Below, piece by piece: positions 44,746-50,438 of a DNA stretch of 64,000 nucleotides. The DNA lies in contig CAZPFS010000002.1 of assembly GCA_964585925.1 (NCBI GenBank), positions 30,590 to 94,589 of the forward strand, written 5' to 3'. Source of the stretch: an uncultured Syntrophomonadaceae bacterium (GTDB taxonomy: Bacteria > Bacillota > Dethiobacteria > DTU022). The notes under the pieces are model-generated. The model was not told where the DNA came from. It saw only the letters and a program-made list of their open reading frames with translations, and ran no database searches. Both the position numbers and the translations under genes were made by a program. Every line of letters begins with the position of its first letter. Positions within the stretch are counted from its first letter, which is position 1.

Positions 44746-45426
44746 ATGAGGCAGAACGACAGATCCGGGAGGACTCAGATGAGATTACAAACCAGGGTTC
44801 CGGAACAGCGGGCTCTGGCCTGTCTGATTGTTGCGGCGGTGTTATTTGCCGGGTTCATGATTTTCGGATCGCCTCGTGTGGAAACCGCATCTGAAATATT
44901 AATACATGCCCTGGAAAAACTGGAGGAGAAGGAAAAATACCCCCTGGTAATTGAAGAAAAAGCCACCAGTTACAGCCTGAAATTCGAGGGTGAAATTCAA
45001 AACTATACCGACCTAAAAGGTAAAATTAAAGATCACGGCTTGGAAATCAGCCGCCGAAAAGAGCTGCTTCTGGTCAAACCGGAGGCCGAAACAGACTGGC
45101 AGGCTGCGGAAGAACTGGGATTAAACAGTCTGAACAGTTTTCTGGCTCATCCGGCAGAGGTCCTTCATGCACTGCGGGAAAATTTTGCCGAATTTATGTT
45201 TGATCCGGGAATTGGGGGCCTTCAAAATATTTACTACGATACCTGTTCCGCCGACAAACATTTTGCCGATCAATTTTTTCCGGATATACCGGTGGCCTCG
45301 ATCGACAGATTGACCGTTTATATGACCCTGTCAGAACCGGAGCGGTTTCTAAAAGAGATCAAAATTGAACTAATTTTCCGGGGCAGTCCTGGCAGCAGTT
45401 TGACCCGTATATATATTGTCAATTGA
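44746..45426 (+). CDS. hypothetical membrane-anchored protein
   Basis: One N-terminal TM (LACLIVAAVLFAGFMIF), then a soluble domain of about 180 aa with no motif. The start may be the internal ATG at about 44779. Confidence 0.4.
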   Translation: MRQNDRSGRTQMRLQTRVPEQRALACLIVAAVLFAGFMIFGSPRVETASEILIHALEKLEEKEKYPLVIEEKATSYSLKFEGEIQNYTDLKGKIKDHGLEISRRKELLLVKPEAETDWQAAEELGLNSLNSFLAHPAEVLHALRENFAEFMFDPGIGGLQNIYYDTCSADKHFADQFFPDIPVASIDRLTVYMTLSEPERFLKEIKIELIFRGSPGSSLTRIYIVN

Positions 45427-45526
45427 ACCCTCCCATCTCCGGTTTGATCACCCATTTCACAAACTTCTTAAAAATTAATTGCCCCTGCAGACAAGTTATA
45501 TTATTATTAATTTGGCAGGATTTTCA

Positions 45527-46165
45527 ATGAAAGGGGAAATTGCCCAATTGAGCGTCAGGATCATAAACCATCCTTTGGTAGAGCATAAAATTACGCTGTT
45601 GAGAGACAGGCAAACCAAGCCCCGGCAATTCCGGGAGCTGTTGAAGGAGCTGTCGATTTTGATGGCCTGTGAGATCACCACGGATTTAACCCTTAATGAT
45701 CTGGTCGTGGAAACCCCTTTGGGAAGCTATTCAGGCAAAACCCTGGGTGAGGAAATAGTATTGCTTCCGGTGTTCAGAGCCGGCCTGGGAATGGTGGAGG
45801 GTTTTTTATCGGTCATCCCTACCGCCAGAGTGGGACATCTGGGGTTGTATCGAGATGAACAAACCTTCAACCCGGTGTTTTACTATTCCAAGCTTCCTGA
45901 TCTAAGCAATTCCCAGGTAATTGTACTTGATCCCATGCTGGCCACCGGCGGGACAGCCTCTTATTGCCTGGAAATGCTGAAAAGGAAAAAATGCAGCAAG
46001 GTCAAGCTGGCGTTTATTATTTCTTGTATGGAAGGGGTTAACAGGCTGAAGCACGAACATCCGGGTACAGTTATTTATACATGCGGCCTGGATCAGGTTC
46101 TGGATGAACATGCATACATAGTTCCCGGATTAGGTGATGCAGGGGATCGCCAGTTCAACACCTGA
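45527..46165 (+). CDS. upp: uracil phosphoribosyltransferase
   Basis: NHPLVEHKITLLRD...ILRAG..GHLGLYRDEQT...VLDPMLATGGTA...YIVPGLGDAGDR aligns with Upp throughout. Start at the internal ATG. Confidence 0.9.
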   Translation: MKGEIAQLSVRIINHPLVEHKITLLRDRQTKPRQFRELLKELSILMACEITTDLTLNDLVVETPLGSYSGKTLGEEIVLLPVFRAGLGMVEGFLSVIPTARVGHLGLYRDEQTFNPVFYYSKLPDLSNSQVIVLDPMLATGGTASYCLEMLKRKKCSKVKLAFIISCMEGVNRLKHEHPGTVIYTCGLDQVLDEHAYIVPGLGDAGDRQFNT

Positions 46166-46506
46166 CGGCACGCTTCCGGCCAGGCAGATCGGGAGCCAGT
46201 CATTCCCCAAAATCCTGATTCTATTGACATAAGACAAGTTCATAGTTTAAAATAAGTTTACGGTTTTGAATTTTGTCCTTTTATCAGTTGCCTTTTATCA
46301 GGTTGGCATATTTATAACAGCGGTTATCGGTTTGGATCGGTTTATAACTTAAAAGAGAAGGACCTGGCGCCTTATAGATTTGTGGGGCGCTATGGATAGA
46401 ATTGTAATTCATTTGCTGTCCTTGCAACACGCCTTTTTGTATTTGGTAACAATACATTTACAATAAAGGGGTTTACCAAAACGTAATCCTTCCTTTCTCT
46501 TTTAAG

Positions 46507-46531
46507 CTGTGCCTGAAACACAGTTTTTTTT
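46507..46531 (+). terminator. terminator-like hairpin in the rny leader
   Basis: CTGTG-cctgaaa-CACAG stem followed by eight T. It ends 30 nt before the rny TTG start. Confidence 0.4.
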
Positions 46532-46561
46532 GATCTATTCATAAAATCGGGAGGTGATCAT

Positions 46562-48097
46562 TTGGGCATCAATGTACCGTTTACTATCCTTGCGCTGCTG
46601 GCCGGCGTTGGTTTAGGTTATATTATCCGGAAGTACCTGGCAGAGGCTCGTATTATTTCAGCGGAAGAGGCGGCCAAAAATATTATTGAACAAGCCAAGA
46701 GCGAAGCCTTGGCAGTCAAACGAGAGAAAGCGCTTGAGGCCAAGGAAGAGATGCACCGGCTGCGCAATGAACTGGAAAAAGAAAACCGTGAAAGACGATC
46801 CGAAATCCAGCGGATGGAACGCCGGTTAATGCAAAAAGAGGAGTCCCTGGACCGAAAAATTGTCAACGCGGAGAAAAAAGAAGAGGATCTGAAAAAAAAG
46901 GAAGAAGAAAACATAAAGGTGCGGGACAAATTGTCCGAGTTGTACCGGCAGCAACAATCCCTGCTGGAACAGATATCCGGAATGAGCTCGGAGGAGGCAA
47001 AGGAGCAACTGCTTCAGCGCATAAAATCAGAGATCACCCATGAAATGGCGATGATGGTGAAAGATATTGAAACCCAGGCCAAAAATGAGGGTGACAAGAA
47101 AGCCCGTGAAATAATTACCATGGCCATCCAAAGATGTGCCGCGGATCATGTTTCGGAGTCAACAGTATCGGTGGTTTCCCTTCCCAATGATGAGATGAAA
47201 GGAAGGATCATCGGCCGAGAGGGGCGCAATATCAGGGCTCTGGAAACCCTTACCGGGATTGATTTGATAATTGACGATACACCGGAGGCGGTTATCCTGT
47301 CGGGATTTGATCCGGTTCGAAGAGAAATCGCCCGGGTTTCCCTGGAACGGCTGGTAAGCGACGGCCGGATACATCCCGCCAGGATTGAGGAAATCGTGGA
47401 AAAAACCCGTAAAGAGGTAGAGGCCCAAATAAGGGAAGAGGGAGAACGGGCCACCTTTGAAACCGGTGTTCACGGACTTCATCCTGAACTGATGATCTGT
47501 TTGGGAAAATTACGCTTCCGCACCAGTTACGGCCAGAACGTATTGCAGCATTCCATTGAAGTAGCCCAATTGGCGGCGGTGATGGCTGCCGAATTGGGGC
47601 TCGATGTTAATTTCGCCAAACGTGCCGGTTTGCTGCACGATATTGGCAAGGCGGTAGATCATGAGATAGAAGGCTCCCACGCCCAGACCGGCGCCGAGAT
47701 GGCTAAAAGGTTCCGCGAATCTTCGGAAATTGTGAACGCCATTGCCGCACACCACGGTGATGTGGATTTTCAAACCATGGAGGCGGTGCTGATCCAGTCT
47801 GCCGACGCCATTTCCGCCGCTCGTCCGGGGGCACGAAGGGAAACCCTGGAATCTTATATAAAACGGCTGGAAAAGCTGGAGGAAATCGCCGATTCCTTTG
47901 AAGGGGTAGATAAGGCCTACGCCATTCAGGCCGGACGTGAAATAAGAATTATGGTCAAGCCCGAAAAAATCGATGATTATGCCTCTGTTCAGGTAGCCCG
48001 GGATATAGTGAAAAAGATTGAAAGCGAATTGGAATATCCGGGACAGATCAAGGTAACCGTAATCCGGGAGACCAGAGCGGTAAGCTATGCCAAATAA
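46562..48097 (+). CDS. rny: ribonuclease Y
   Basis: N-terminal TM, long coiled-coil, KH domain ([15 protein letters not shown]), HD domain ([17 protein letters not shown]...LLHDIGK). 511 aa. Confidence 0.9.
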
Positions 48098-48100
48098 CTA

Positions 48101-48228
48101 GGTATGGGGACAGTTCTGCAAGATCCAAGGTATGGGGACAGTTCTGCAAGATCCAAGGTATGGGGACAGTTCTGCAAGATAGAACTGTCCCCGATCTCCC
48201 CGATCTCCCCGATCTCTCCGATGACCCC
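48101..48228. repeat. tandem 28-nt direct repeats ending in a perfect 12-bp hairpin, followed by 9-mer CCCCGATCT-type repeats
   Basis: GGTATGGGGACAGTTCTGCAAGATCCAA occurs at 48101-48128 and 48129-48156. A partial third copy at 48157-48180 pairs with AGAACTGTCCCC at 48181-48192. After that come GATCTCCCC, GATCTCCCC, GATCTCTCC and GATGACCCC in a row. Confidence 0.8.
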
Positions 48229-48260
48229 GGTGCATCCCCGATATGTCTTCCATGGTAGAA

Positions 48261-48283
48261 AGTGCCCGCGGGCACTTTTTTTT
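48261..48283 (+). terminator. rho-independent terminator after rny and the repeat block
   Basis: AGTGCCCGCGGGCACT palindromic stem followed by TTTTTTT. Confidence 0.7.
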
Positions 48284-48359
48284 ACATATTTAAAAGAAGG
48301 TATTTTCTGACCCTCTATCGAATAAAATAATTTACCATTTTTGGGTTGGAGGGTATTAA

Positions 48360-48872
48360 GTGATAACGGCAAACCACGAGGATACATACCGGATAAATTT
48401 AATTGTAGGGTTTTTGATGCAATTCCCGGAAATATTTACAGTAAATTATGATCTGGAGAGTTCGTCTTATTGCTTTGCTTTTATGATCAGAAAAAAAATA
48501 TCATCAGGCCAATACCGCAGGTTCTGCAAGGATTTTATGGAAATCTGGGACAGCTATTGTTATTTTTCAAAAAGAGAACTTTCAGAATTCAAAATTCGCA
48601 AACATTACTGCTATGAATTCACCCGGTTGGATCTTTTTTTTGCCAGGGAAAATTTGAGCAGCGAGGAGGTGAGTCTGGTTAACAATTTTGTCAAAGACAA
48701 ATTTGGCGAAAACCTGATCAGCGATTACCGGGAAGGAGATTCAAACTTGTTTACTGATTACAGGCAAACTGATGACGATTACCTGGAATTTCTTCTGATT
48801 CAGGGAGAAAAAAGACCAAACGCATTGTTCGCATTTCGCGAGTCGGGAAAGGTATATGTGTTAAACAAATAA
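48360..48872 (+). CDS. hypothetical protein, apparently low-GC
   Basis: 170-aa ORF rich in Y, F and K, with no recognisable motif. It occupies the slot where Bacillus has ymdB between rny and spoVS. Confidence 0.45.
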   Translation: MITANHEDTYRINLIVGFLMQFPEIFTVNYDLESSSYCFAFMIRKKISSGQYRRFCKDFMEIWDSYCYFSKRELSEFKIRKHYCYEFTRLDLFFARENLSSEEVSLVNNFVKDKFGENLISDYREGDSNLFTDYRQTDDDYLEFLLIQGEKRPNALFAFRESGKVYVLNK

Positions 48873-49110
48873 GGGCAATCATAAAATTAAATAATAACGA
48901 GTATGCCTACCCCGTTTCCCCTAGGAATTTCCATGGTTCTAGATAAAAACCAGGCATTTTTTGATACGTTAACCTTTATGAGCATGTAATCTTCTTCGTA
49001 AAGATGGAATATTTTAAAATATAACCGATATGGAATAATTCAGGAAGGATTGTGAGCCTTAAAACACGAACAGTATTCAAGTAAAATGTTTAAGGGGGTA
49101 CATATGGTTT

Positions 49111-49371
49111 ATGGAAGTATTAAAGGTTTCAGCAAAATCTAATCCGAATTCTGTGGCCGGCGCCTTGGCAGGTGTATTGCGTGAACGGGGTGGAGCAGAA
49201 ATACAGACAATCGGGGCAGGTGCGCTCAATCAAGCAGTAAAGGCAGTAGCTATAGCCAGAGGGTTCGTGGCACCGGGAGGAATTGATCTGATTTGTGTTC
49301 CGGCTTTTACAGATATTATGATTGATGGTGAGGAAAGGACTGCCATAAAACTGATTATACAACCCCGTTAA
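49111..49371 (+). CDS. spoVS: stage V sporulation protein S
   Basis: MEVLKVSAKSNPNSVAGALAGVLRERGGAEIQTIGAGALNQAVKAVAIARGF... is near-identical to B. subtilis SpoVS. 86 aa. Confidence 0.9.
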   Translation: MEVLKVSAKSNPNSVAGALAGVLRERGGAEIQTIGAGALNQAVKAVAIARGFVAPGGIDLICVPAFTDIMIDGEERTAIKLIIQPR

Positions 49372-49414
49372 ACTGCTGTGATTATCATGAGATTATATTA
49401 TGCGAGCAATTATT

Positions 49415-49447
49415 ACACCCTTGACCACACTCAGGGGTGTTTTTTTT
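49415..49447 (+). terminator. rho-independent terminator after spoVS
   Basis: ACACCC-13 nt-GGGGTGT stem followed by TTTTTTTT. Confidence 0.6.
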
Positions 49448-49472
49448 ATGAATAGGAGGGTAATATTGAACT

Positions 49473-50438
49473 ATGGAAAATACTTGCCCCGAACATTTTA
49501 TCGCCGACTCCCACTGCGATACCCTGCGGTTGACGAACAGTGAGGGCTATAATTTTACGCTGCACAATGACTGCGCCCATATTGACCTGCCGCGGCTCAG
49601 GGCCGGGAAAGTAAACCTCATGTTTTTTGCAGTATGTACCGCCCCTTACTGCCAACCCGGTTCATATCTTTACAATTCGATGATCTACATTCGAAACTAT
49701 CACCGCCTTTTGAATCAGAACAGAGAACAGTTGCTGGCCCTGGAAAACAGTGACGATCTTGAACCGAACAAACAAAATAACAGGATATACTGCCTGCTTT
49801 CCCTGGAAGGTGCGGAACCCCTGGAGGATTGCCCGGATAATCTGGAGATATTTTTCAGATTGGGAGTGCGCTGCGTCTCATTAACCTGGAACAGCCGAAA
49901 CATGTTTGCCGATGGAGTCGGAGAAAATGCCGCCGGAAGCGGTTTGACCAGTTTGGGACGGCGTCTTCTGGAAAGAATGTCCGCACTCGGGATTATACTG
50001 GATCTGGCTCATCTGTCGCCACGCTGTTTTGACGAAGCCCTGGATCAGTCAGCGAGACCGCCCCTGGTATCTCATGCCAATTCCCACAAAATGTGCAATC
50101 ACCCCCGTAATTTAACCGATGAACAGGTCAAAGCAGTGGCCTCAAAGGGGGGGGTTATCGGTTTGAGTTTCAACGCACCGTTTGTTTCCGGAAATAAGAC
50201 CGCCACCCTGAGTCAGTTGGCCGATCACTATGTTCACCTGGCGGAGGTGGCCGGAACATCCCATTTGGCTATCGGCTCCGATTTTGACGGCACGGAATAC
50301 CCGGTAGAACAATTATCTGATGCCTCTTGCTACGGCAACCTGTTGATGTCGCTATATGACCGGGGCTTTTCCCCGGCGGACATCGATCTAATTGCCGGTG
50401 GAAATCTGAGGAGGATTATTAAGGCCAATTTAAAATGA
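49473..50438 (+). CDS. membrane dipeptidase (peptidase M19 family)
   Basis: IADSHCDTL N-terminal metal-binding motif. DLAHLS and GSDFDG segments are typical of renal-dipeptidase-like enzymes. Confidence 0.8.
   Translation: MENTCPEHFIADSHCDTLRLTNSEGYNFTLHNDCAHIDLPRLRAGKVNLMFFAVCTAPYCQPGSYLYNSMIYIRNYHRLLNQNREQLLALENSDDLEPNKQNNRIYCLLSLEGAEPLEDCPDNLEIFFRLGVRCVSLTWNSRNMFADGVGENAAGSGLTSLGRRLLERMSALGIILDLAHLSPRCFDEALDQSARPPLVSHANSHKMCNHPRNLTDEQVKAVASKGGVIGLSFNAPFVSGNKTATLSQLADHYVHLAEVAGTSHLAIGSDFDGTEYPVEQLSDASCYGNLLMSLYDRGFSPADIDLIAGGNLRRIIKANLK

Follow-up and report, generated by a model that had tools for sequence, protein, structure and literature searches.

Tandem repeats around an older hairpin downstream of rny in an uncultured Syntrophomonadaceae bacterium: a likely product of local copy-slippage

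In the genome of an uncultured Syntrophomonadaceae bacterium, the gene for RNase Y (rny) is followed by tandem 28-nt units, a hairpin, tandem 9-mers, and an intrinsic terminator, all placed between the stop codon and the next gene. How such a block arose, and whether it does anything for the transcript of the gene that it follows, are the questions raised by this locus. A preliminary description of the window (the whole 64-kb stretch of DNA analyzed here) had read the block as the footprint of replication slippage or of a miniature element, or as a structured 3' untranslated region (3' UTR), and had pointed to a possible link with RNase Y autoregulation.

Anatomy of the repeat block and its presence in sequence data

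The rny coding sequence begins with a TTG start codon, 7 bases after AGGAGG, and ends with TAA at 48095-48097; the first 28-nt unit begins 3 bases past this stop (Table 1). The units stand head-to-tail, with a start-to-start spacing of 28 nt that equals the unit length, and TRF reported them as a single array (48100-48180; period 28, 2.9 copies, 100% matches) with a score of 162, which was by far the highest in the window, where the runner-up array scored 47. Direct repeats of at least 22 nt occurred in the 64-kb window only in this array. When shuffled sequences were searched, neither a match to the 28-mer nor the hairpin 1 pattern appeared in any of 100 shuffles (0/100 for each).

Table 1. 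Features at the 3' end of rny, with positions in the window
Feature	Position	Strand	Basis or remark
rny (RNase Y) CDS	46562..48097	+	Pfam RNase_Y_N 1e-63, KH, HD
28-nt unit copy 1, GGTATGGGGACAGTTCTGCAAGATCCAA	48101..48128	+	TRF, direct-repeat search
28-nt unit copy 2, identical to copy 1	48129..48156	+	TRF, direct-repeat search
28-nt unit copy 3, 24 nt identical, to GCAAGAT	48157..48180	+	gives the 5' arm and loop of hairpin 1
Hairpin 1	48157..48196	+	RNA fold -24.7 kcal/mol, z -5.7
Tandem 9-mer array, TCCCCGATC / GATCTCCCC	48188..48242	+	TRF 5.9 copies, 78% matches
Terminator 2 (intrinsic), AAAGTGCCCG/CGGGCACTTT + T8	48259..48283	+	fold -13.6 kcal/mol, z -4.8
Conserved block after terminator 2, ACATATTTAAAAGAAGGTATTT… to GGAGGG Shine-Dalgarno	48284..48359	+	invariant columns, alignment A1

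The core of hairpin 1 is formed by GGGGACAGTTCT (48162-48173), which is perfectly complementary to AGAACTGTCCCC (48181-48192) and gives 12 Watson-Crick base pairs around a 7-nt loop; in RNA, two G·U pairs lengthen the stem to 14 consecutive base pairs, with a further 3-bp outer extension. The same AGAACTGTCCCC is equally complementary to the 5' arm in copies 1 and 2. Hairpin 1 lacks a U-tract in the window, where it is followed by GATCTCCCC, so it does not qualify as an intrinsic terminator. Between hairpin 1 and terminator 2 sits a decaying CCCCGATCT 9-mer array, in which two exact copies of GATCTCCCC (48193-48201 and 48202-48210) are followed by increasingly diverged ones, namely GATCTCTCC (48211-48219), GATGACCCC (48220-48228), and two further degenerate copies 3' of GATGACCCC. 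The 9-mer unit consists of the last 4 nt of the hairpin 1 3' arm and its GATCT flank, and the 68 nt from 48188 to 48255 are C-rich (C 44%, G 18%) with a 9-nt periodicity. Terminator 2 begins 17 nt past the array, and its arms (48259-48278; stem of 8-10 bp) and 8-T run (48276-48283) are those of an intrinsic terminator. The spacer between the rny stop and terminator 2 is 160 nt long in the window.

Every element named in the preliminary description was found where it had been placed, including a terminator "70 nt further on", the stem of which begins 66 nt past the end of hairpin 1 if the distance is measured from the hairpin. We also agree that the block is not a CRISPR array. It shares with such arrays a 28-nt, partly palindromic repeat, but the units abut without spacers and number only three, the last of which forms part of a hairpin. 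Two open reading frames cross the block, one on the + strand (48104-48310, 68 aa, with SPISPISPISP) and one on the - strand (48085-48387, 100 aa, with GEIGEIGEIG); both were rejected as genes because they run through the terminator, have no Pfam match, and consist of sequence that the relatives lack. With a period of 28 nt, successive copies of the unit also fall in different reading frames. Replication-origin iterons beside the AT-rich stretch at 48300-49100 were considered and dismissed, as this stretch and its ORF are conserved in relatives without the repeats.

Two features of base composition were recorded in passing. GATC occurs at 518 sites in the 64 kb, against approximately 250 expected from length alone, and five of these sites lie inside the repeat block (48122-48214). 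The complement of the 9-mer array (48198-48239, - strand) is the only stretch in the 64 kb with four GGGG tracts and loops of at most 15 nt, and it represents a potential G-quadruplex on the rny template strand; a G-quadruplex at this array might itself favor polymerase stalling and slippage.

The window matches a 99.5-kb contig of an NCBI metagenome-assembled genome (MAG), and the same strain is present in the Logan assemblies of two runs, SRR8925752 and SRR8925753. A protein identical to the window RNase Y was found in one NCBI MAG contig and in a Logan contig, the sources of this RNase Y sequence being one MAG and the two runs of a single study. The contig from SRR8925752 (L002) includes rny and stops at window position 48129. 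For a k=31 graph to branch past 48129, the repeated sequence has to extend over 31 nt or more, which requires at least two full units and a partial copy; the break in L002 lies at the predicted point, which supports a genuine multi-copy array, and the repeat is therefore in the reads. The contig from SRR8925753 (L003) runs from 48163 through hairpin 1, the 9-mers, terminator 2, and the downstream genes, and agrees with the window base for base.

Short-read metagenome assembly can collapse or expand repeats, the source of the window is a MAG, and the Logan k=31 contigs break within the array. Moreover, a graph with k=55 would, by reasoning only, form a cycle at 83 nt (k + period); the periodic length of 81 nt falls just short of this, and a longer array could have been collapsed to 81 nt. 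Even so, we regard an artefact of this kind, whether in the architecture or only in the copy number, as improbable: a break at 48129 is what would be expected if the array is real and its repeated part spans 31 nt or more; the flanks, hairpin 1, the 9-mers, and terminator 2 were reproduced in a second run and by a second assembler; and single 150-nt reads can span an array of 81 nt. The copy number of 3 is taken from the MAG assembly and could be an underestimate. As a separate observation, L003 begins at 48163, 12 nt later than the exit from the k=31 graph expected from the assembly (48151), and this late start may hint at polymorphism or heterogeneity at or near 48162 in the SRR8925753 sample.

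Terminators and a conserved hairpin in a fast-evolving spacer

Relatives with RNase Y homologues that are 93% (L004, L005), 91% (L006, L007), and 88% (L008-L012) identical to that of the window share the gene order upp, rny, a 170-aa ORF, spoVS, M19 dipeptidase, and PHP protein. In the alignment of these loci (alignment A1), the end of rny, terminator 2, and the next ~75 nt were conserved, whereas the stretch between the stop and the terminator could not be aligned; it measured 55 nt in a 93% relative, 116 nt in a 91% relative, and 41 nt in an 88% relative, compared with 160 nt in the window. The preliminary description had proposed that the rny 3' region of close relatives be compared for copy-number variation. 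None of the relatives with an 88-93% identical RNase Y has the repeats, and terminator 2 is retained, with both its arms and its T-run (8-9 T) kept in L004-L011. At third-codon positions, identity of rny to the 93%, 91%, and 88% relatives falls to 62%, 59%, and 51%, respectively, and with values this low an unalignable spacer is what drift predicts. Compared with these third-codon sites, both terminator 2 and the block that follows it are conspicuously constrained.

This block (48284-48359) is far better conserved than synonymous sites and marks the 3' limit of the repeat block. It is probably the promoter or leader of the next ORF, an orphan; a search of the block for sigma-70 promoters gave no convincing match. 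The L004-type spacer, which contains no repeats, was identical in six independent samples, and the region is therefore stable within a species when it is repeat-free. In a metagenome scan for further relatives, the conserved terminator pattern was matched by a single contig, which was of the L008 type. An apparent spacer of 30 nt in L025 (340-440; ERR1880916 k127_158172) was rejected: the contig is a chimera with two Nextera adapters (AGATGTGTATAAGAGACAG) just upstream of the orphan ORF and is unfit for comparison.

Rapid, lineage-specific change in 3' UTRs has been documented in Staphylococcus and other bacteria, with insertion sequences, STAR elements, rearrangements, and local nucleotide changes as its sources, and differences in 3' UTRs between species were reported to alter expression in Staphylococcus (Menendez-Gil et al. 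2020, PMC7049690). The rny block resembles this species-specific variation in that a conserved coding sequence and a conserved terminator enclose a 3' UTR that diverges fast through local changes and repeats. It differs in that insertion sequences, STAR elements, and rearrangements are among the sources in that system (PMC7049690), and in that the block is known from its sequence alone.

Terminator 2 is the ancient element, because L020 carries a terminator 2-type hairpin alone, without hairpin 1, and relatives with 81-82% identity, in which the classical order recA-recX-rny-ymdB-spoVS is found, carry a related hairpin ~40 nt past the rny stop. In L017 (205-335) and L018 (20-140), hairpin 1 is followed by a T-run, so it is a terminator there, and the downstream GTGCC/GGCAC terminator 2 has decayed. 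The window, L004, and L006 show the opposite arrangement. In other words, the clade shows a turnover of terminators between two tandem stem-loops. For the window, we infer that the rny transcript ends at terminator 2. An anti-terminator formed by GGTGCATCCCCG (48229-48240) and the 3' arm of terminator 2 was considered and rejected, as inspection gave only ~3+4 bp with a bulge, and both the MFE and centroid folds leave terminator 2 intact.

Hairpin 1, with arms GGGGACNG…CNGTCCCC and a clade form of GGGGAC(A/G)G…C(T/C)GTCCCC, occurs in five lineages (the window, L006, L017, L018, and L004), and in L004 one base pair has been deleted, with the loss falling on both arms. In the four lineages that can be aligned, 87.5% of cells pair, compared with 42-58% when the 3' partner is slid, and four pairs are altered on both sides, for example from A-U to G-C at pair 7. 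These patterns suggest that hairpin 1 is under structural constraint, although four sequences make them supportive rather than conclusive. Because hairpin 1 is conserved, the spacer region is not wholly neutral. Judged from these comparisons, hairpin 1 predates the repeats and is the putative ancestral element around which both arrays formed.

Origin of the two arrays

The spacer of L006 holds a single-copy homologue of the unit junction and the hairpin (TTCTGC-ACATCC…GGGGACAG…TTTGTCCCCGAT). When the window array was collapsed, it could be aligned to this spacer from TTCTGCA·ATCC via the GGGGACAG arm to TGTCCCCGAT, with a score of 44 as against 18.5±4.0 for shuffles, only 1 of 300 of which reached 44. 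As the homologue is present in single copy at the orthologous site, the unit is a resident sequence duplicated in place and not an insert. The GATCT flank that enters into the 9-mer unit also follows the hairpin 1 T-run in L018. A possible origin of the unit from the downstream ORF was rejected: GTTCTGCAAG…TGGGACAG (48521-48555) scored 20, within the 19-27 obtained with shuffled units, and is attributed to chance.

The preliminary description had also allowed for a miniature element, that is, for a copy or footprint of a dispersed REP, MITE, or STAR-like element inserted after rny. A GC-rich hairpin in an intergenic 3' position does recall REP-type elements, and our search of the genome of the bacterium itself covered 64 kb. 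Within this window, no second copy of the 28-mer was found with up to 3 mismatches allowed, nor was a second GGGGACAG…CTGTCCCC hairpin. A 19-nt core of the 28-mer had one match, in Chryseobacterium and apparently by chance, among 185,579 GTDB species-representative genomes, and none in viral contigs (IMG/VR), while the spacer had no BLASTN match (distant mode) in plasmids or phages. A repeat search of 47800-48700 detected the internal hairpin and the tandem arrays and no flanking terminal inverted repeats or target-site duplication. Since the unit corresponds in content to a homologue that resides in single copy at this very site in L006, a dispersed element is extremely improbable, and this part of the preliminary description was not supported.

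With 100% identity among its copies, the 28-mer array is recent; the 3' array, whose 9-mers have decayed to 78%, is older. We consider it likely that the block is the product of recent local copy-slippage flanking an older hairpin in the fast-evolving rny 3' spacer, and that its repeats are neutral. The core would be the GC-rich hairpin 1, which follows rny in a small clade of Bacillota from anaerobic digesters. Slipped-strand mispairing during replication is the most likely cause of the tandem duplications to either side of it in the window's lineage. On its 5' side, 28 nt made up of the 5' arm, the loop, and the upstream flank would have multiplied to approximately three copies in a recent or still ongoing process; on its 3' side, 9 nt made up of the end of the 3' arm and GATCT would have multiplied earlier, to approximately four to six copies. 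The junction between units reads CCA where the third copy has AGA, and a one-step duplication would thus be insufficient; slippage beside the stable hairpin would have taken at least two steps, or a later change would have followed. The replication-slippage footprint proposed at the outset is thus favored by the single-copy homologue in L006, the perfect identity of the 28-mers, and the absence of the array from relatives.

Intergenic tandem repeats of the VNTR or minisatellite type arise in bacteria by slipped-strand mispairing, and copy-number polymorphism is the property that defines a VNTR. Like loci of this type, the block is head-to-tail, spacerless, non-coding, and lineage-specific, its recent copies are identical and its older ones decayed, and it has a local single-copy precursor in a relative. 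The presence of two different arrays (28 nt and 9 nt) flanking the two arms of a hairpin is, in contrast, an unusual layout for a VNTR-type locus. The copy number of the array, which is known from one strain, probably varies between cells or strains. The block exemplifies the speed at which sequence between a stop codon and its terminator can evolve, and it suggests that a hairpin may give rise to tandem duplications on either flank. It also calls for caution in annotation, since blocks of this sort can pass for CRISPR-like or REP-like features and interrupt short-read assemblies.

Possible function and the rny neighborhood

The full 3' UTR was predicted to fold with -70.8 kcal/mol (z -3.0 vs shuffles) in a structure that preserves hairpin 1 and terminator 2 and in which the extra, G-rich 28-mer copies pair loosely with the C-rich 9-mers. 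The G-rich units and the C-rich 9-mers are partly complementary (AGATC…GGGGA vs TCCCCGATCT), which is expected because both descend from one palindrome; this complementarity and the z score of -3.0 could nevertheless reflect function rather than common descent. The RNA would accordingly be pictured as a 14-bp hairpin with the spare 5' copies lying loosely on the 9-mers and with transcription ending at terminator 2. As a description, the term structured 3' UTR suits the region: hairpin 1 is stable (Table 1) and conserved as a structure, although the repeats that flank it are unconserved.

Tandem or back-up terminators and 3' stem-loops, such as REP stem-loops, block 3'-to-5' exonucleases. The block has in common with them a GC-rich hairpin upstream of an intrinsic terminator, and in L017 and L018 the likeness to back-up terminators extends to a U-tract on the same hairpin, which replaces the downstream terminator. 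Unlike REP stem-loops, hairpin 1 is a single-locus structure with no dispersed family, and its stabilizing role is putative; it would be at most a second barrier to 3'-to-5' exonucleases.

A stronger claim would be that the repeats form a functional 3'-UTR module that tunes the termination or decay of rny mRNA. In one version, the three identical 5' arms would compete for the one 3' arm in a conformational switch; in another, the C-rich 9-mers would serve as a putative platform for Rho (rut-like) or for a KH protein (RNase Y, PNPase). In favor of such a module are the fold of the 3' UTR, in which 5' copies are paired to 9-mers, the C-richness and 9-nt periodicity of 48188-48255, the structural constraint on hairpin 1, and the expression changes reported for 3' UTR differences in Staphylococcus (PMC7049690). 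However, all relatives lack the repeats even though they keep the terminator and the flanking blocks, a strong intrinsic terminator only 17 nt past the array leaves Rho little to do, the perfect identity of the copies is a sign of recency and not of conservation, and RNase Y autoregulation is known from the 5' end (PMC10303841). A functional module is therefore unlikely, and the repeats themselves are most likely neutral.

Very improbable, in our estimate, is the further idea that the triple 5' arm, the single 3' arm, and the 9-mers set the 3'-end stability or termination of rny, with slippage providing a heritable and reversible tuning of RNase Y dosage. Such a device could work through alternative pairing or through recruitment of Rho or a KH-domain protein, and would amount to a phase-variable 3' UTR. 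If copy number varied and altered the stability of rny mRNA, the block would be a natural dial on the main RNA-decay endonuclease of Bacillota. Nothing that we found points toward such a dial, and the block as it stands appears to be of little consequence.

The suggested link to RNase Y autoregulation likewise found no support. In Bacillus subtilis (Korobeinikova et al. 2023, PMC10303841), RNase Y autoregulation acts through the 164-nt 5' UTR together with ~100 nt at the start of the ORF. The block shares with this system the gene rny and the idea of cis control of its own mRNA, but the autoregulatory sites of B. subtilis are located at the 5' end (PMC10303841), whereas the block lies 3' of the stop codon. 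It is also unconserved even within its own clade. An autoregulatory element of the B. subtilis type would, in addition, be cleaved by RNase Y.

The 5' leader of rny (46224-46561), unlike the 3' spacer, is strongly conserved. A promoter, TTGACA-18-TAAAAT (46224-46253), precedes a leader of ~300 nt. Within the leader, CUUAAAAGAGAAGGA and UCCUUUCUCUUUUAAG are predicted to form a long-range helix that encloses a hairpin (CCUGGCGCC/GGCGCUAUGG), and a terminator-like CUGUG…CACAG hairpin with a U8 tract (46504-46533) lies ~30 nt before the start codon. In six lineages, the most distant of which has 81% RNase Y identity, both sides have changed in 8 of the 41 predicted pairs. The leader has no Rfam match, and neither has the repeat block: an Rfam 15 cmscan of 46000-49500 (E≤1) returned only a spurious snR10 hit inside rny. 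The leader could be an undescribed motif in the region where B. subtilis autoregulation acts, and this conserved and structured element is a more promising regulatory candidate than the 3' repeats.

The genes around rny also differ from the classical arrangement. In this clade, ymdB, the usual gene after rny, is absent, and the 170-aa orphan ORF takes its place (48360-48872). This ORF belongs to a group of only 7 clusters among 5.8 billion proteins and has no Pfam or NCBIfam match. Its AlphaFold model is confident (pLDDT 82, pTM 0.80) and of the alpha/beta type, and a Foldseek search of the model against PDB gave no match at E≤0.001. The protein is fast-evolving, with 64% identity where RNase Y shows 93%. 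Upstream of rny (44746-46165), a 226-aa ORF without a family match and upp occupy the place held by recA-recX in the 81% relatives, and the whole rny neighborhood is rearranged in this clade.
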